DNA of 64,000 bases from Spirochaetia bacterium (GTDB taxonomy: Bacteria; Spirochaetota; Spirochaetia; UBA9216): contig OY776510.1 in the NCBI GenBank assembly GCA_963675665.1, positions 864,001 to 928,000 of the forward strand, given 5' to 3'. A model generated the notes under the pieces. It saw only the letters and a list, made by a program, of their open reading frames with translations, did not search any database and had not been told where the DNA came from. How positions within the stretch are numbered: the stretch's first letter is position 1; the number at the start of each line of letters is the position of its first letter. Positions 23,639 to 31,916 of the stretch are shown piece by piece. The position numbers and the translations under genes were made by a program.

Positions 23639-24385
23639 TTAATTTTTAAAATAATTTACGCCGTTTTTTATTATATCAAGACCGAAACCGCGATCAACTT
23701 TTTTTCTTGTCCAGAGCGGATGATTTTCAGGATGAATGAAGGCTTCCGGATGAGGCATCAGTCCGAGAATCCGGCCTGTTTTATCGGTGATTCCGGCAAT
23801 GTTTTCAGCGGATCCGTTTGGGTTCCAGCCGGAGTATTTTAAAACGTCGAGATTGTTTTCTGTTATATAATTCATGATCTTTTCGTTTTCGGTAATAAAA
23901 CGGCCTTCTCCGTGTCTGATTGGGAGCTCGATTGAGTCGATATTCTTAAGCCAGGCACAACGCGAGTCCTTTTTAACTTCAAGCCTGACCCAGTCGTCGA
24001 TAAATGTTCCGCAGTCATTATGGACAAGAGTAACTTCCGGTTTCCAGGATCCGTTTATGTTCGGCAGAACTCCCATTTTTACAAGAACCTGAAAGCCGTT
24101 GCATATGCCGATAATCAGGTTGCCGTTATCCACAAATTTCTGAAGGCTGTCTTTAAGATGCTTTTTGAAAAGATGGGCAAAAACAAGGCCGGAGCCGAGG
24201 TGGTCGCCGAATGAAAAACCTCCGGGAAAGCCGAGAATCTGAAAGTCGTCCAGATGCGAAGGCTTTGCTATAAGATCGTTTATATGAAGGAGTTCAGTTT
24301 CGGATCCGGCCATGCTGAATGCGTCCGCAAGGTCCCGATCCGAATTAATTCCGAAGCCTGTAATAATGCAGGTTTTAATTTTCAT
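23639..24385 (-). CDS. purQ: FGAM synthase glutaminase subunit
   Basis: PGGFSFGDHL, GICNGFQ, RHGEG, GLMPHPE. Confidence 0.94.
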   Translation of the reverse strand: MKIKTCIITGFGINSDRDLADAFSMAGSETELLHINDLIAKPSHLDDFQILGFPGGFSFGDHLGSGLVFAHLFKKHLKDSLQKFVDNGNLIIGICNGFQVLVKMGVLPNINGSWKPEVTLVHNDCGTFIDDWVRLEVKKDSRCAWLKNIDSIELPIRHGEGRFITENEKIMNYITENNLDVLKYSGWNPNGSAENIAGITDKTGRILGLMPHPEAFIHPENHPLWTRKKVDRGFGLDIIKNGVNYFKN

Positions 24386-24393
24386 TCTTTCTC

Positions 24394-27300
24394 CTATTTA
24401 AAGCTCTTCCAGGCTTTTTCTATGCTGTTTATATCGGTTTCAAGGCATATTCTTCCGTTCCGGGTGAATGTCAACATATTCTTCTGCACCTCCGGGCCTC
24501 CTGTGACCCTGCCGGTTTCAGCCGTCCTGGTTCCCTTCATGATTTCTTCGAACCTTGTTTTGTCTGCGGACGAAACCGAAACAATAAAGCGCGACGGAGT
24601 TTCACTGAACAGCATTCGGGTTGTTTCAAAATCACCCCGGGAAACAGGAACATCATCAAGGTTTATTTCTGCGCCGAGCCTTCCGCCCAGGGCCGACTCT
24701 GCAGCAGCCGCCGCGAGGCCTCCGTCGGAGAGATCGTGGCAGGATTTAACAAGACCCTCCTGCATCGCTTTATGAAGTTTGCGGTACAGCTCAAGAGCCT
24801 CTCCGGTTTTTACAGACGGGCAGTCGCCGAGATTGAACAGGCTGTCGGAACGGTCGTCGCCGTTCTGCTGTGCCATAAGCTTTTCATAGAAGCTTCCGCC
24901 TAGTTCCTCACGGGTTTCCCCGAGAATATAGATTAAATCTCCGTCTTCCTTAAAATCGGAAGTGACGGCTCCGGTTACGTCACTTATTATTCCCATTTGC
25001 GAAATCAGCAAAGTCGGCCGAACCGGTATTTTTTTCCCGCCTATTTTTGACTCATTTTTCATGGAATCCTTTCCCGAGATAAGGGGCATTCCGTATGCTG
25101 TGCAGGCGTCCCTTAGGCCTTTGCAGGCGCGGACCAGCTGTGCCATACGGTATTCGCCGTCCGGGTTATCAGGGCTCTGAACAGGATCAGGCCAGCAGAA
25201 ATTGTCCAGTGCAGAGGTTCTTTCCGGGTCGCCGCCGACCGCGATGTGAGCCCTGTAGGCTTCGTCGACGCCGCACATTGCCATATCGTAAGCGTCCGCG
25301 TCTCCGAACCTGGGACAAACCCCGTGAGTTACGGTTACGCCCTTCCTGGAGTTTCTGACGGGCCGCAGTACCGCTCCGTCCGAAGGAGCGTCACTGTTGA
25401 CGCCGATGAAGGGTTTCATCACCGACTGGGCAAGAACCTCGTGGTCGTACTGTCTGATTAAACCCTCTTTTGATGCTATATTGGGTTCGGCAAGAAGCTT
25501 AAGAAGCATTTCGCTGTTTGCTTCAGCCGTATCGGAATACGATCCTTTCCCTGCTTTTTCCAGAGAAACAACCCCGGTGCGCGTTTTTTTCCATTCGGCT
25601 TTAAGCTGCATTTTCGGCAGTCCGTCGTGCAGAAATTCCAGCTCCAGTAGTCCGACCGGGCGGTTTTTATAACGGAGATCGATATAGCCGTCATCGGTGA
25701 ATTCTCCAATCTCGACGGCTTCAACCCCGCGTGCGGCGGCAAGCTGTTTAAACGCTTCAAGGGTATCGTCAGCGACTGCAAGGCTCATACGTTCCTGGCT
25801 TTCCGACACCAGGATTTCCCATGGGGCGAGGCCGCTGTATTTCAGCGGGCATTTATCAAGATCTATGCGGATTCCGTTGCTGAATTCGGCCATCTCGCCA
25901 AGCGACGACGAAAGACCTCCGGCGCCGTTGTCGGTGAGGCCGGCGTATAATCCTTTGTCCCGGGCTTCAATCAGGAAATCACTGAGTTTTTTCTGGGTTA
26001 TCGGATCTCCAATCTGTACTGCAGATGTCGGCGATTCTTCATCAAGCGCAAGCGATGAAAAGGTCGCGCCGTGGATTCCGTCTTTTCCTATACGCCCGCC
26101 GAGCATAACTGCTTTGTGTCCGGCTTCTATATGTTTGATCCAGGAACCTTCGCCGTCTATTTCAGCAGGAAGAATCCCTCCGGTCCCGCAGAAAACCAGC
26201 GGTTTTCCGGTATAGCTATCGTCGAACAGAAATCCTCCGCCGACTACAGGGATGCCCGACTGGTTTCCGCCGTCGACTATTCCGCGGTGAACGCCTTCCA
26301 TAATCTGTCGCGGATGAAGGAGCCCTTCCGGGATCTTTTCTTCGGGAGCTGTAACCTCTCCGAAGCACAGGTAGTTTGTGTTAAAAATAGGGCGGGCGCC
26401 CTTTCCCGTGCCGAGAATATCGCGGTTAACACCCACGATGCCAGTTATCGCGCCGCCGTACGGATCAAGAGCCGAAGGCGAATTATGAGTTTCAACCTTG
26501 AAACAAATCAGATTATCATCATCAAAAACAATCACGCCTGAATTATCGTGAAAAACGGAGCGCAGATAATCTTTTTCCTTGGATATCTCATCGGTTGTGT
26601 CGCGAATGTATTCTTTAAAAAGGGATCCGATTTTTTCAGTTGTTTGAGTATCTGTATCGGTATATACAACTGCCGCATTCAGAATTTTGTGTTTACAGTG
26701 CTCGGACCAGGTCTGGGCTATCATCTCGATTTCTACATCGGTTGCTTCGGCGCCGAGACCTGCTTTCAATCTTGATTTGGTAACCTTCCCGCTTGCATAA
26801 TATTTTTTTACTGCGTTCATTTCTTCAAGAGTCAGCGCAAGCAGTCTTTTTCGTGAAAAGGACAGAAGTTCCTTGTCCGACATTGAGGTAATATCGAATG
26901 TTTCGATATCTATACTGCTTTCTGCAACTTTTGCAGGGTAGATATCCGGAAAGCGTTTTCCTTCCGACCATTCCCCGGCGGAAATTATAACAGCCTGTTC
27001 GATAAGAGGATTATACAGGTGTTTTTTCAGGGCGGTCATCTCTGTTTCATTCAACAGGCCGCATTTTATTAATAGTTGTCTTGCCGTCTGTACTATGGTT
27101 TCTCCGGGAAGGGTTTGACCGACAGCGGCACCGATTGCTGTTCTGGCTGTTATTGCAGTAGGGTTTGTAACGCCTGTTTTATAGGAAATTTCAAACAGGT
27201 AGTCCCAGCTTTCCCTGTTAAGTTCCGCTGCAGGTTTTCCGAAGCTGACGCACTGCGCCACCGGGTCGGAAAATATCTCTTCCGCTGCAGATTCGTCAAT

Positions 27301-28149: not shown

Positions 28150-29406
28150 TTACACAAGTCCGGGAAAATCAAGAGTGGCAAAATAATCATTCGGCGTTTC
28201 TGCACGTCTGATCTGAACTACTGATCCGTCGGGTTCAAGCAGCAGTTCAGCGCTTCGTAATTTTCCGTTGTAGTTGAATCCCATTGCATAACCATGTGCT
28301 CCTGTATCATGGAACACAAGGACGTCTCCACGTTCGAGATGCGGCAGTTCCCTGTCAATTGCGAACTTGTCGTTGTTCTCACAGAGGGAACCTGTTACGT
28401 CAACCGGGCCTTCGACAGGTTTATTTTCCTTGCCTATCGGTGTGATATGATGATATGCCCCGTAAAGCGCAGGTCTCATCAGGTTGGCCATTGAGGCATC
28501 CATACCGATAAAAGTTTTATATGTCTCTTTTCTGTGAAGAACCTTTGATACCAGGTAACCGTATGGCCCCATAATCATTCTTCCGGATTCCATTACGATT
28601 CTCAGTGCCGAAAGGCTGTTTTTCTCAATTTTTTCTTTATAAAGAGCTTTTATTCCGGCAGAGACTTTTGCAAGATCTACGGGCTCTTCTTCCGGTTTGT
28701 ACGGAATACCTATACCGCCGCCGAGATTAACAAAATCAAAGGTAATACCAAGTTCCCTGTTCAAATCGAGAACAAGTTGAAAAAGAATATCGGCGGTTTC
28801 AACAAAATATTCCCAGTTAAGCTCATTTGAGGCCACCATTGTGTGAAGGCCGAAATGTTTAATGCCTTTTTCTTTTAATCTCCGGTATCCTTCAAAAAGC
28901 TGTTCACGTGTAAAACCGTATTTGGCCTCTTCCGGCTTGCCTATAATAACATTTCCTTCCTTCAGGGGGCCCGGGTTGTACCTGAAGCAGATTCCGTCGG
29001 GAATACCGGCTGCTTCTTCCAGATAATCGATATGACTGATATCATCGAGATTAATGATTACGTCAAGTTGCCTTGCTTTCAGATATTCTTCAGCCGGGGT
29101 GTCGTTTGACGAAAAGAAAATCTCGTTTCCTTTCAGTCCGACTGCATCGGCGAGCATCAGTTCAGGCAAAGACGAACAGTCAGCTCCCATTCCTTCTTCC
29201 CTGAGTATTTTCATAATATGCGGGTTCGGACAGGCTTTTACAGCAAAAAAGTTTTTAAATCCGCCCGGAACCCAGTTGAAGAGCTTATAGAGCTTTTTTG
29301 CATTTTCCCGTATCGCTTTTTCATCATAAATATGAAATGGTGTAGGGTATTTCTCAATAATCTTTTTAAGCTGCTCTTCTGAAAAGGGAAGCGTTTTAAT
29401 GCTCAT
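28150..29406 (-). CDS. lysA: Diaminopimelate decarboxylase
   Basis: PTPFHIYDE, FAVKACPN, NLGGGIG, ESGR, GSLCENND, TGAHGYAMGFNYNG. Confidence 0.94.
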   Translation of the reverse strand: MSIKTLPFSEEQLKKIIEKYPTPFHIYDEKAIRENAKKLYKLFNWVPGGFKNFFAVKACPNPHIMKILREEGMGADCSSLPELMLADAVGLKGNEIFFSSNDTPAEEYLKARQLDVIINLDDISHIDYLEEAAGIPDGICFRYNPGPLKEGNVIIGKPEEAKYGFTREQLFEGYRRLKEKGIKHFGLHTMVASNELNWEYFVETADILFQLVLDLNRELGITFDFVNLGGGIGIPYKPEEEPVDLAKVSAGIKALYKEKIEKNSLSALRIVMESGRMIMGPYGYLVSKVLHRKETYKTFIGMDASMANLMRPALYGAYHHITPIGKENKPVEGPVDVTGSLCENNDKFAIDRELPHLERGDVLVFHDTGAHGYAMGFNYNGKLRSAELLLEPDGSVVQIRRAETPNDYFATLDFPGLV

Positions 29407-29468
29407 TTGGATCTCCTATAAAAAGTCAACCACAAGCTAAAAATATAAGCTTATGATCTGGTCGGATA

Positions 29469-30581
29469 TCAACCGACCATTACAGCTTCCCATGCTGCTG
29501 CCTGCATTTCCCTGTATTCTTTTCTAAAAGCCATTTTCATCGGATCAAACGGCTCTCTGGTTTTTAAAATTGTATATACCAAAGTGCTCATCTTGCGGGC
29601 GGCAGCTATTACACTCTTACCCGAGCCTTTCTGCTTCTTCATCGCTGCATACTTCGTCATTATTCGGTACGTCCCGGTCTTCTTTTGCATACGAACCATT
29701 CCCATCACCATCTGTACGAAGGCTGTCCTCAGTTCTACAGGCCCACGCTTTGTTATATGTCCATGATGTATTGTCATATTTGAGTTCTGCACCCATGGCA
29801 CAAGCCCGGCGTTTGCTGCATATTTCTTCGCACTATCATATCTGCCGATATCGTCTGTATAGGCTCTTACTGTTGCTGCTGTTATTAGACCCACGCCTGG
29901 TATTGTCTGCAGAAGCTCAACATCTTCATCGTCCTCCACAAGCTCAGCCAAAACCTTTTCAAGCTGCTTGACTTGCGATGCCTGATTATCTATCATATCC
30001 AGTAACGGTATTACCGTTTTGGCAGCGCTTCCGTAAAAGTCGTGGTCCTCGAGACCGTTCAGGATTCGCTGCCTTTCTTTTTTACTCTGCAGCTGTCCGC
30101 GTTTGGTCTCTATTCCATAACCAAGTAATAAGCCATGCACCTGGTTCTTTAACGACACAACAGATTTTACCAGTATCGACCTGGATTTCAGCACCCTTCG
30201 AATATCCTCACTCTCTTGGGAACATAATATCGATTCAGGCAGCATGTCTTTCTCAAGAAACTCCGCCAGGGTGCGTGCATCATGTTTGTCTGTCTTTTTT
30301 ACAGATTCATTCACTACCTTGAATTTCAAAGTATTCACTACAACCACTTCGACTCCAGCCTTTAACAGTTTATTGCGGAAATAACGGGCATTCCCGGTTG
30401 TTTCCACCGCTGCTCTCAACTCATATTCCTCTTCACAATATTCATCCAGCATTTTCAGAAATGCTCCATAACCATTTCCGCTGGTCGGATACATTCCCAA
30501 TTGATCAATTTTTCGGTCTTCACTTAAAAGGCATACTGTAAACTGCGTTTTGTGAAGATCCACGCCAATACTCATCTTCAT
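29469..30581 (-). CDS. IS110-family transposase/recombinase
   Basis: RuvC-like DEDD (GVDLHK, AVETTGN, KTDKHDA), LQTIPGVG, GLVPWVQNS catalytic Ser, GHITKRG. Confidence 0.96.
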   Translation of the reverse strand: MKMSIGVDLHKTQFTVCLLSEDRKIDQLGMYPTSGNGYGAFLKMLDEYCEEEYELRAAVETTGNARYFRNKLLKAGVEVVVVNTLKFKVVNESVKKTDKHDARTLAEFLEKDMLPESILCSQESEDIRRVLKSRSILVKSVVSLKNQVHGLLLGYGIETKRGQLQSKKERQRILNGLEDHDFYGSAAKTVIPLLDMIDNQASQVKQLEKVLAELVEDDEDVELLQTIPGVGLITAATVRAYTDDIGRYDSAKKYAANAGLVPWVQNSNMTIHHGHITKRGPVELRTAFVQMVMGMVRMQKKTGTYRIMTKYAAMKKQKGSGKSVIAAARKMSTLVYTILKTREPFDPMKMAFRKEYREMQAAAWEAVMVG

Positions 30582-30589
30582 GTTCTATC

Positions 30590-30780
30590 TCCAATAGTTT
30601 GAAGCAGTGCCTATACGGTGAATTGTTCCATTCTCCTATCCGGTCTCGCAGACCATTGAATGTTTCGGTTACGGCTCTTCAATCTCCTAAACGGTCTCGC
30701 GGACCAGTAAAAATGTCGAACAGTAACCTTACTGCCTCAATTAAAGTTAAGGCAGTATATCAATTCACCAGCTCATGAAG
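30590..30780 (-). ncRNA. Predicted bridge/seek RNA of the IS110 element
   Basis: Non-coding region upstream of transposase; closing stem 30617-30625/30761-30769, hairpin 30730-30757, two GGTC-GACC hairpins each flanked by the AGGAG core; ends approximate. Confidence 0.75.
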
Positions 30781-30794
30781 ACTTTTTATCATTC

Positions 30795-30942
30795 CTCCTA
30801 TAAAAAGTTCCCGCATGGATGCGGGTTTTAAGAGGTGAGGTTGTAAAGCTAAACTGCGTTTGCAGTTTAAACTGCGTTGCAGTTTTTGTTTTACAACTTC
30901 AAAATGATAAAATTGCATGGAAGCAATTTTATCATTCCTCCT
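30795..30942 (-). mobile_element. Non-autonomous mini-element with the same ends as the adjacent IS110
   Basis: CTCCTATAAAAAGT (30795-30808) equals 29413-29426; TTTTATCATTCCTCCT (30927-30942) equals 30784-30799; interior is all short palindromes, no ORF. Confidence 0.75.
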
Positions 30943-31004
30943 GAAATTATTTACGGCCCGCTTTTTAAAAGCCGTTATACATGAGTATTTATGTTAATGA
31001 CCGG

Positions 31005-31916
31005 TTAGGTCAATACCTTTACTTTGTTCTTTTTAAGCACCAGTGAGCCCTCGGGGCCTCCGGCGTCCTGTGCTACCGCGGCGCATTTTATTCTAAAAAG
31101 AAACCATGTCGGCGGCAGGTTTTCTCCCGACAGGGCTTCATAGTTTCCCTGTCCTTTCGAGATAATAATATCGGCCGAATTGAGTCTTGTAATAAAACCT
31201 GGATCACATTCCGATAAAACGGTTCCCGCTGTTGCCGCACCGGAACTGATTGTTTCAACTAATTTGTCTATGCCCACTGTTCTGGTGTCTTCCAACAGCG
31301 CGTCATTGAGCGCCGGTCCGCCGCGGACAACGAAAGTAATCTTTTTATCGGGAAAATCGGTAAGCAGGGTTTCAATGAAAATCCGGTCGAAGACAATCTC
31401 GCCGGCGTTGTCTCCGAGATAAATGATATTTTCAGCCTGTTTCAAATCAATGTGGAAATCCTCGAGCATGAAAAGCCCGTCATTGAAATCGTCTCCGTTT
31501 TCTATATGCTGAAAAAGCGGCTGGTCAAGAATTTCTTCAAGCGCTTCATTTAAATCAAGTGAAACCTTTGCTCCGAAGTCAATCAGGTTGCCTGCAATTG
31601 CAAGTGCAAGCGCTTCTGCAAACGGGTTATCAGCCTCTGTGACGCGTTTTTTCAGCTGCGGATACAGCTTCATTGCCGCTTCATTACTTGCGACCTTTAT
31701 TTTTTTATACGGATCGGCGATTCCTGTAGCTTCCTTAATCTTTACGGTAAGATAGGCGGCCATTTCGGGCGGGGTTACAGCGTCGGCAAGATCAGCAAGA
31801 TTTTCCAGCAGTTTATGAAATTCAATGCTTAATTCTTCTTCACCGATGCCGCACATGCGGCTGATCTGAAGATACTGTTTAAGCAGGCATACTACACAAT
31901 CAGGTTTGGCTATCAT
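31005..31916 (-). CDS. DUF89/ARMT1-like damage-control phosphatase
   Basis: DPYKKIK, AIAGNLIDFG, GDNAGEIVFD, LNDA, SKGQGNYE. Confidence 0.92.
   Translation of the reverse strand: MIAKPDCVVCLLKQYLQISRMCGIGEEELSIEFHKLLENLADLADAVTPPEMAAYLTVKIKEATGIADPYKKIKVASNEAAMKLYPQLKKRVTEADNPFAEALALAIAGNLIDFGAKVSLDLNEALEEILDQPLFQHIENGDDFNDGLFMLEDFHIDLKQAENIIYLGDNAGEIVFDRIFIETLLTDFPDKKITFVVRGGPALNDALLEDTRTVGIDKLVETISSGAATAGTVLSECDPGFITRLNSADIIISKGQGNYEALSGENLPPTWFLFRIKCAAVAQDAGGPEGSLVLKKNKVKVLT

Follow-up and report, generated by a model that had tools for sequence, protein, structure and literature searches.

RNA-guided targeting by insertion sequences (ISs) of the IS110 family is established, as described for the bridge RNAs of the IS110 group (Durrant et al. 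2024, PMC11208160) and for the seekRNAs of IS1111-type elements (Siddiquee et al. 2024, PMC11187229). Here we describe an element of this family from a Spirochaetia bacterium (assembly GCA_963675665.1), located in a window of 64,000 nucleotides (contig OY776510.1, positions 864,001 to 928,000 of the forward strand) to whose first base all coordinates below refer. Very probably, this element is an active IS110-family insertion sequence whose left-end non-coding region, read on the minus strand, encodes a predicted bridge/seek RNA of about 150–190 nt with two homologous guide modules: module A, which would recognize a Shine–Dalgarno (SD) sequence together with the start codon behind it, and module B, which would recognize the joined ends of the element itself. 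The natural target of IS621, an element of the IS110 group with a bridge RNA, is a repetitive extragenic palindromic (REP) sequence, whereas the target here is a translation-initiation region.

With IS621, as described by Durrant et al. 2024 (PMC11208160), the element shares a DEDD recombinase whose gene is preceded by a long left end with a non-coding RNA region, which is the arrangement of the IS110 group. Also shared are the succession of a 5′ stem-loop, a target-binding module and a donor-binding module, the division of each module into one top-strand and one bottom-strand arm, a promoter formed at the junction with its −35 element in the right end and its −10 element in the left end (predicted here), and site-specific insertion with no target duplication beyond the shared core. 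However, the guide order is reversed relative to IS621, the top-strand complement coming first, and the 3′ arms (TTTAGGAG in module A, ATAGGAG in module B) have the same sense as the left halves, which is not the order of IS621-like elements. According to the same description, both guides of IS621 cover the core dinucleotide, whereas the top-strand arm of the present element begins about 3 nt past the junction; the donor arms of IS621 lie in a simple internal loop, whereas here they are junction strands of a multi-helix loop; and the subterminal inverted repeat, 2–3 bp in IS621, measures 10 bp. The transposases of the two elements align in the C-terminal domain only.

The guide order found in both modules, with the top-strand complement 5′ of the bottom-strand match, is instead that of the IS1111-type seekRNA elements described by Siddiquee et al. 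2024 (ISEc11, ISPa11 and ISKpn4; PMC11187229). The element also shares with the IS1111 group the location of the donor-binding bases in a multi-loop (PMC11187229) and subterminal inverted repeats of IS1111 length, for which Durrant et al. give a range of 7–17 bp (PMC11208160). By contrast, the non-coding region of IS1111 elements is described as lying downstream of the transposase gene, whereas here it lies upstream (30633–30716); the transposase has 370 residues rather than 330–350; and its C-terminal motif is GLVPWVQNSN, in which the serine is followed by asparagine, rather than GL-P----S(T)G, in which it is followed by glycine (PMC11187229). Rare IS1111 relatives with an upstream non-coding region, such as ISMtsp17, have been described (PMC11187229), and a mixture of IS110 and IS1111 traits therefore has precedent. 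Thus, the element combines an upstream RNA and a long left end, as in the IS110 group, with the guide order, 10-bp repeat and multi-helix donor arms of IS1111.

An insertion preference for translation-initiation signals is likewise not without precedent: IS900 of Mycobacterium avium subsp. paratuberculosis targets such signals according to the title of Doran et al. 1997, as given in PMC8141618. The present element shares with IS900, compared by description only, membership of the IS110 family and a position at translation-initiation signals. IS900 lies in the opposite orientation to its target gene, the hed open reading frame (ORF) on its complementary strand uses host signals, and it is not known to bring a replacement SD. 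Our literature search turned up neither a guide RNA tied to the specificity of IS900 nor a publication in which targeting of an SD or a start codon is ascribed to a bridge or seek RNA; ISfinder may already list the clade. The string ‘ribosom’ is absent from the text of a 2026 review (PMC13604230), and the end strings of the element and the word ‘Shine’ are absent from the supplements of Durrant et al. (six of seven files, one incomplete). The principle, then, is known from bridge RNAs (2024) and from IS900 (1997), and what is new is a variant that mixes IS110 and IS1111 traits.

Membership of the IS110 family, proposed in the initial annotation together with an upstream two-module guide RNA, is borne out by the transposase, which contains an N-terminal DEDD/RuvC-like domain (DEDD_Tnp_IS110, PF01548, residues 5–155, E = 9.3e-18) and a C-terminal Transposase_20 domain (PF02371, residues 222–303, E = 1.4e-17), and which matches the NCBIfam model NF033542, ‘IS110 family RNA-guided transposase’, over its full length with 216.8 bits (cut-off 140). 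In the PDB it matches the transposases of ISCro4 and IS621, in the C-terminal domain only. As in the family at large, there are no terminal inverted repeats, the ends being GAATG... (at 30794) and ...ATAGGAG (at 29413), there is no target-site duplication beyond a short shared core, and a structured non-coding RNA, recognizable by covariation, has a target-matching module and a second module that matches the joined ends. The subterminal repeat ATAAAAAGTC is separated from the left tip by 5 nt, as is its reverse complement from the right tip. The left-end non-coding region comprises 213 nt, the right end past the stop codon about 56 nt. A genome-wide copy search found 15 copies, each of 1382 bp, which differ at one C/T position only; all 15 have an open transposase frame, and the element has therefore been active recently. 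In the contigs of four sequencing runs the IS is about 14–22 times as deep as its flanks (summed contig word depth, IS/flanks within 29250–31050: 227/10.4, 375/27.5 and 163/10.3), which fits about 15 copies. No contig of these runs shows an empty site. Two odd contig joints, one that ‘skips 1329’ (with six foreign letters and 20-nt sides) and one that ‘goes back 161’, were judged to be repeat artefacts.

The motifs, hairpins and enclosing stem that the initial annotation had noticed in the non-coding region are all present where it had placed them, on the minus strand. The 213-nt region folds with −64.2 kcal/mol, compared with −45.6 ± 4.2 kcal/mol for shuffled sequences (z = −4.45; 0 of 200 as good). 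Alignment of this left end with the same region of 26 relatives (n = 27) and analysis with RNAalifold yielded four helices, namely a long-range closing helix, the stem of module A and two hairpins. Of the cells in the 26 pairs, 96.4% are paired, against 20–44% when partners are slid by 1–3 columns. Both sides have changed in 11 of the 26 pairs, and the covariation score (0.331 versus 0.196) was reached in none of 500 shuffles. Exchanges of this kind occur in helix 1 (pair 41–198, AU in 12 and GC in 11 sequences; pair 40–199, GC in 19 and AU in 5), in helix 2 (pair 90–148, CG in 11 and UA in 9) and in helix 3, the module A hairpin GGTC-CGCGA-GACC at 30705–30693 (GC 20/AU 5 and UA 19/CG 7); the corresponding hairpin of module B is GGTC-TGCGA-GACC at 30654–30642. 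Several pairs are G-U, pair 110–125 being UG in 26 of 27 sequences, so that the predicted RNA would be that of the transposase strand only. An Rfam search of 29300–31100 gave 12 matches with E values up to 10, none at the gathering score and none inside 30582–30794. Pairing of CATTC with GAATG inside module B was considered and rejected: with the left end fixed, the middle base of GA-N-TG is free to vary, and where the arm changes along with the left end, no compensating change occurs there.

The circle junction ATAGGAG|GAATG that had been predicted in the initial annotation is the one expected from the two ends, and the proposed role of module B as the donor guide is supported by covariation among relatives. 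Left ends with six different pentamers are each matched by an exactly complementary 5′ arm of this module, GAATG/CATTC, GCATG/CATGC, GCACG/CGTGC, GAGTG/CACTC, GTATG/CATAC and GAACG/CGTTC (56, 2, 1, 1, 1 and 1 distinct sites, respectively). Against this, the arm matches the left end at only three or four of five bases in seven sites; three further rows were mis-parsed. The 3′ arm ATAGGAG and the right end TTTTTATAGGAG are both invariant in the relatives, and covariation therefore has nothing to say on that side.

Alignment of the flanks of all copies, a check that the initial annotation had proposed, places all 15 at AGGAG | N5–7 ATG: the left flank ends with AGGAG in every copy, and the ATG follows 6 nt past the insertion in 12 copies, 5 nt in two and 7 nt in one. 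In all 15 the transposase gene is co-oriented with the downstream gene. The right end re-supplies TATAGGAG, so that AGGAG again precedes the downstream gene at the original distance, and when the flanks are rejoined each of the 15 sites becomes a plain SD–spacer–ATG. As background we used the 531 unoccupied [AT]TAGGAG sites of the genome, calling SD-like those with a start codon within 3–11 nt that opens at least 80 codons. Only 134 of the 531 (25%) are SD-like, and 32% of these have the 6-nt spacing; compared with that share, 12 of 15 copies is a significant excess (binomial p = 1.9e-4), and site choice is therefore not explained by the motif alone. On the left side, T at −6 is found in 10 of the 12 occupied 6-nt sites, compared with a frequency of 0.17 in 273 unoccupied AGGAG-N6-ATG sites (p = 1e-6), and T at −8, −9 and −10 is also enriched relative to the same set (flank positions are counted from the insertion point, negative to the left).

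Covariation between guide and target, another check proposed there, was found in the relatives for both arms of module A. It is clearest for the 3′ arm. Across 72 distinct sites with 31 arm variants, arm and left flank are identical at −7, −6, −5 and −4 with frequencies of 0.80, 0.88, 0.86 and 0.93, compared with 0.28, 0.45, 0.48 and 0.77 for shuffled arms, and the summed identity was reached in none of 5000 shuffles; at −8 the same 72 sites give no arm/flank signal. These and the donor comparisons rest on the 109 of 158 loci that could be parsed, 49 being left unparsed. Individual genomes illustrate the relationship: elements with the guide TACAGGAG have mostly TACAGGAG in their flanks (one genome, 11 copies), and those with CAAAGGAG have AAAGGAG (another genome, nine copies). 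The assignment of the module A 3′ arm as the putative SD-side guide, which the initial annotation had made from position, is thus strongly supported.

For the start-codon side, relatives with other targets are the most informative. About 20 relatives, most of them from a metagenome scan, have 3′ arms other than AGGAG, namely CACGGAG, CACAGAG, CGCAGAG, CACAAAG, AGGGGAG and TAGGGAG, to which a genome scan adds TTGAGAG. This retargeted subgroup (loci L148, L151, L153, L157, L160, L161, L164–L167, L173, L174, L176, L179, L180, L182, L183, L185, L189 and L085), with 52–57% protein identity, targets short tandem repeats (for example CACGGAG, CACAGAG, CGCAGAG and GGGGAG); the left flanks match the elements' own 3′ arms, and the right flanks consist of short tandem repeats and have no ATG close by. 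Both target arms differ from those of the SD-type elements, whereas the donor module and the ends are the same. The 5′ arms lack CAT, and the centre of each complements its own right flank (CTGTG/CACAG, TTCCC/GGGAA). By locus, CAT is present in 100 of 102 AGGAG-type arms, the two exceptions being parsing errors that do have CAT, compared with 0 of 19 other arms; 22 of 143 loci were unparsed in this count, and nine of these, inspected individually, comprise five with CAT, one decayed copy with CGT, one retargeted without CAT and two without a readable module A. Counted by distinct arm, CAT occurs in 49 of 49 SD-type arms and in 0 of 12 retargeted arms. CAT as a ‘handshake’ with the left end of the element was tried and rejected, relatives with the left end GCACG keeping CAT in module A.

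The 5′ arm was also compared directly with the right flank. Complementarity over all 108 sites (61 arms) lies 8.8 standard deviations above arm shuffles (0 of 5000), with z = 4.9 (0 of 5000) for the 96 SD-type sites and z = 3.0 (p = 0.0026) for the 12 retargeted ones. When single registers are tested, 85 SD-type sites with 43 arms, for which only the four variable bases 3′ of CAT were used, peak at z = 4.0 (0 of 2000; next best 2.5), and 10 retargeted sites peak at the same register with z = 2.5 (7 of 2000; next best 1.6). The complementarity and register tests exclude four loci whose arms had been mis-extracted (L114, L117, L181 and, in its first extraction, L167). Anchoring the matrix on the ATG likewise yields a modest signal, confined to the expected register (p = 0.0096; z −1.5 to 1.3 at other shifts). 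The 5′ arm signal came out only with ATG anchoring, the addition of 80 metagenome loci (the best 80 of at least 325) and the single-register tests.

At the peak register the hairpin-adjacent base faces the last base of the left flank, the three linker bases are unpaired, and the arm covers +3 to +9, with CAT opposite +7 to +9. This is the position of an ATG 6 nt after AGGAG, the modal spacing. In the arm itself, within the module A sequence ACATTTTT that begins at 30716, CAT (30715–30713) would thus stand opposite the start codon and TTTT opposite the spacer from +3 to +6, with ACT as the unpaired linker. The initial annotation had the start codon read out by this arm, a proposal that gains from the presence of CAT in every readable SD-type arm and in no retargeted one, and from a register determined independently of it. 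Its predicted target TTTAGGAG-AAAAATG, with the ATG 4 nt after AGGAG, was off by two, the optimum being AGGAG-N6-ATG, because the 3-nt linker next to the hairpin is unpaired; pairing of the 5′ arm from +1 onwards is not supported (cells (8,+1), (7,+2), (6,+3) and (5,+4) of a boundary-anchored matrix, z = 0.5, 0.9, −0.6 and −0.4). Taken together, the module A 5′ arm appears to be a real right-flank guide, and the start-codon side is supported, less directly than the SD side.

These observations suggest the following mechanism. Excision would join the ends to the junction ATAGGAG|GAATG, presumably via a circular intermediate, and the joined ends would create a promoter with TTGACT in the right end, 17 nt, and TG-A-TAAAAA in the left end, the latter a candidate extended −10. 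The RNA made from it would be bound by the recombinase. Module B would then bind the element's own joined ends, ATAGGAG having the same sense as the right tip and CATTC being the complement of the left tip GAATG. Module A would bind a translation-initiation region, its 3′ arm reading −7 to −1 (NNNAGGAG) on the bottom strand and its 5′ arm reading +3 to +9 on the top strand, that is, four spacer bases plus ATG, with +1 and +2 facing the unpaired 3-nt linker. Recombination is predicted at the 3′ edge of AGGAG, with AG the likely core because no other dinucleotide is shared by the donor and every target, retargeted ones included. The element would land between SD and start codon, in sense orientation, in the 5′ untranslated region; its right end TTTTTATAGGAG would restore an SD at unchanged distance from the ATG; and the element would be transcribed from the host promoter, with the host gene kept expressed by read-through.

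Several points weigh against this model as a whole. The contigs of the four sequencing runs contain no right-end/left-end circle junction; no RNA run was found among the sequencing runs that contain the sequence; a boundary-anchored covariation matrix of 5′ arm and right flank has no clear diagonal (59 sites, 23 families); and arm shuffles control only partly for base composition and for the relatedness of elements, although the register controls argue against an effect of composition alone. Others bear on the start codon in particular, and would fit an alternative in which readout is confined to the SD side: the 3′ arm NNNAGGAG would give essentially all of the specificity, CAT would be kept for the structure of the RNA, and the ATG would be present since most tolerated AGGAG sequences are real ribosome-binding sites, other insertions having been purged by selection. 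In line with this, the spacing of the ATG ranges from 3 to 10 nt among the sites of relatives (of 47, 19 have 6 nt, nine 7 nt, seven 5 nt, five 8 nt, and seven an ATG elsewhere or none), so that CAT:ATG pairing would be a preference rather than an obligation. Positional enrichment in the right flank is weak at the 12 own-genome 6-nt sites (best p = 0.019–0.05, uncorrected). In the RNAalifold structure, the CA of CAT is paired with an invariant UG on the opposite side of the loop (C101–G137 and A102–U136), and part of the conservation of CAT could be structural. Finally, Lentisphaeria relatives with 33–35% identity sit at AGGAG...ATG with AAT replacing CAT. Yet the invariant UG persists in the retargeted relatives although CAT is gone, which speaks against CAT being structurally required, and the arm centres of these relatives are complementary to their own right flanks; in SD-type elements, covariation of the variable arm bases with the spacer is confined to one register; and 12 of 15 copies have the 6-nt spacing, against 32% among SD-like sites that are under the same selection regime. 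We therefore regard an SD-only readout as unlikely and favour a guide RNA that reads both sides of the target.

Far less probable still, to the point of being barely credible, is an explanation in which the two modules are repeated transposase-binding DNA sites in the left end rather than parts of an RNA. The repeats are subterminal, like the transposase-binding sites of other IS families, and would suit such a role. However, compensatory changes preserve the four helices, the G-U pairs are valid on one strand only, and the arms co-vary with external target sequence, for which a DNA binding site gives no reason; in addition, the protein family has been described as using such RNAs on the basis of experiments (Durrant et al. 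2024, PMC11208160; Siddiquee et al. 2024, PMC11187229). The coordinates of the parts of the predicted guide RNA, and of the surrounding features, are collected in Table 1.

Table 1. Features of the insertion sequence, its predicted guide RNA and its flanks, in window coordinates.
Feature	Position	Strand	Basis or remark
Complete insertion sequence, IS110 family	29413..30794	minus	1382 bp
Transposase/recombinase, 370 aa	29469..30581	minus	Pfam, NCBIfam and PDB matches
Left end: GAATG, then 10-bp subterminal inverted repeat ATAAAAAGTC	30780..30794	minus	Sequence
Right end TTGACTTTTTATAGGAG: candidate −35 TTGACT, subterminal repeat GACTTTTTAT, replacement SD AGGAG	29413..29429	minus	Identical in 15/15 copies and nearly all relatives
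Putative core of bridge/seek RNA	30617..30769	minus	Long-range helix GGTGAATTG (30769–30761)/CAATTCACC (30625–30617)
5′ stem-loop ACTGCCT...AGGCAGT	30731..30756	minus	Minimum-free-energy fold; present in relatives, length-variable
Module A, predicted target-binding loop	30667..30728	minus	Inside stem GGTTAC (30728–30723)/GTAACC (30672–30667)
Module A 5′ arm ACATTTTTACT, predicted right-target guide	30706..30716	minus	Register and CAT tests
Module A 3′ arm TTTAGGAGAT, predicted left-target guide	30682..30691	minus	Same sense as flank −7 to −1, so pairs with bottom strand
Module B 5′ arm CATTC, complement of left-end GAATG	30658..30662	minus	Covariation with left end
Module B 3′ arm ATAGGAG, same sense as last seven bases of right end	30633..30639	minus	Invariant
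Right flank: spacer ATCCAA and ATG of diaminopimelate-decarboxylase-like gene (lysA)	29404..29412	minus	ORF below
143-nt non-autonomous repeat, similar to miniature inverted-repeat transposable elements, with IS-like ends	30795..30937	minus	Starts GAATGATAAAATTGC, ends ACTTTTTATAGGAG; between ancestral SD and IS
Ancestral lysA SD AGGAG	30938..30942	minus	Related lysA loci

The copy in the window lies in front of a gene (ORF 28150–29406) with Orn/DAP/Arg decarboxylase domains. Its immediate left flank is the end of a 143-nt repeat and not the SD of lysA. In seven of seven lysA loci from genomes of the same genus or family, AGGAG-N5–8-ATG is uninterrupted, and the 143-nt repeat and the IS are therefore derived insertions. 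The initial annotation had reconstructed the site TTCAGGAG-ATCCAA-ATG as the target of the IS; this is indeed the ancestral site of the composite of repeat plus IS, and it is not the immediate target of this IS copy. Elsewhere in the window, the other site singled out in that annotation, ATAGGAGAAAGAATG, is present as the reverse complement of 24383–24397. Located before a gene that was there called purQ, it is an unoccupied near-optimal site on the minus strand (TTTAAATAGGAG-AAAGA-ATG) with 5-nt spacing.

The 143-nt repeat belongs to a family with 49 blastn high-scoring segment pairs in the genome (further places include G000:C1:1652323-1652896 and 2973058-2973371). Its members, of about 110–150 nt, are non-autonomous and have the ends of the IS, from GAATGATAAAA... 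to ...TTTTTATAGGAG, with a 5′ hairpin formed by the subterminal repeat and its inverse. At 13 repeat 3′ ends found by blastn, an ATG follows after 5–9 nt in 10, a TTG at 6 nt in one, and the IS itself in two. Some repeats occur in tandem arrays, as expected if each insertion rebuilds its target. These miniature repeats are probably mobilised in trans by the IS. Directly before the rebuilt SD, the repeat in the window contains a terminator-like hairpin (30810–30825, minus strand; CCCGCATCCATGCGGG then AACTTTTTAT), which could uncouple the downstream gene from upstream transcription. On the opposite strand, 30847–30940 (plus) gives a weak, sub-threshold match to the Rfam motif TD-2 (35.2 bits versus a gathering score of 48.7; E = 0.0047), the best of the Rfam matches. 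The TD-2 motif might itself represent a miniature element of related type from another spirochaete.

Some relatives deserve separate mention. The Lentisphaeria family (L092–L109, from one chromosome and related metagenome-assembled genomes) has ends from ATGGTATGATAAATAG... to ...TTTTATCATAGGAG, sits between AAAGGAG and an ATG 5–9 nt away, and has the target-module 3′ arm GAAAGGAG. At L059, about 60–120 nt past the transposase stop codon, a tandem duplication covers the final 29 nt of the right end (...GACTTTTTATAGGAG twice), and at L148 the right flank enters another left end after 8 nt; both look like repeated use of a rebuilt site.

If the guide assignments are right, this would be a natural bridge/seek RNA with two target guides tuned to a functional signal rather than to an arbitrary repeat, and it would offer a sequence-level explanation for the old observation of some IS110-family elements at translation-initiation signals. 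The retargeted relatives form a natural reprogramming series, in which the same donor module is combined with new target arms that define guide positions and register. The mixture of IS110 and IS1111 traits bears on the divergence of the two groups. More speculatively, and with doubt outweighing confidence, we propose that a widespread bridge RNA clade, found in Spirochaetota, Desulfobacterota, Lentisphaerota and others, uses SD plus ATG, the short signal most universal among bacterial genomes, as its landing pad, inserts in sense orientation with a replacement SD, rides host transcription cheaply, and mobilises miniatures that stack in 5′ untranslated regions, each with a terminator-like hairpin and an SD, so that it would act as a genome-wide rewriter of translation-initiation regions. 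Targeting of SD and ATG would also explain the spread of one element family across distant phyla. Elements and miniature derivatives placed at gene starts will disturb the annotation of start sites, and may alter the expression of the genes behind them.

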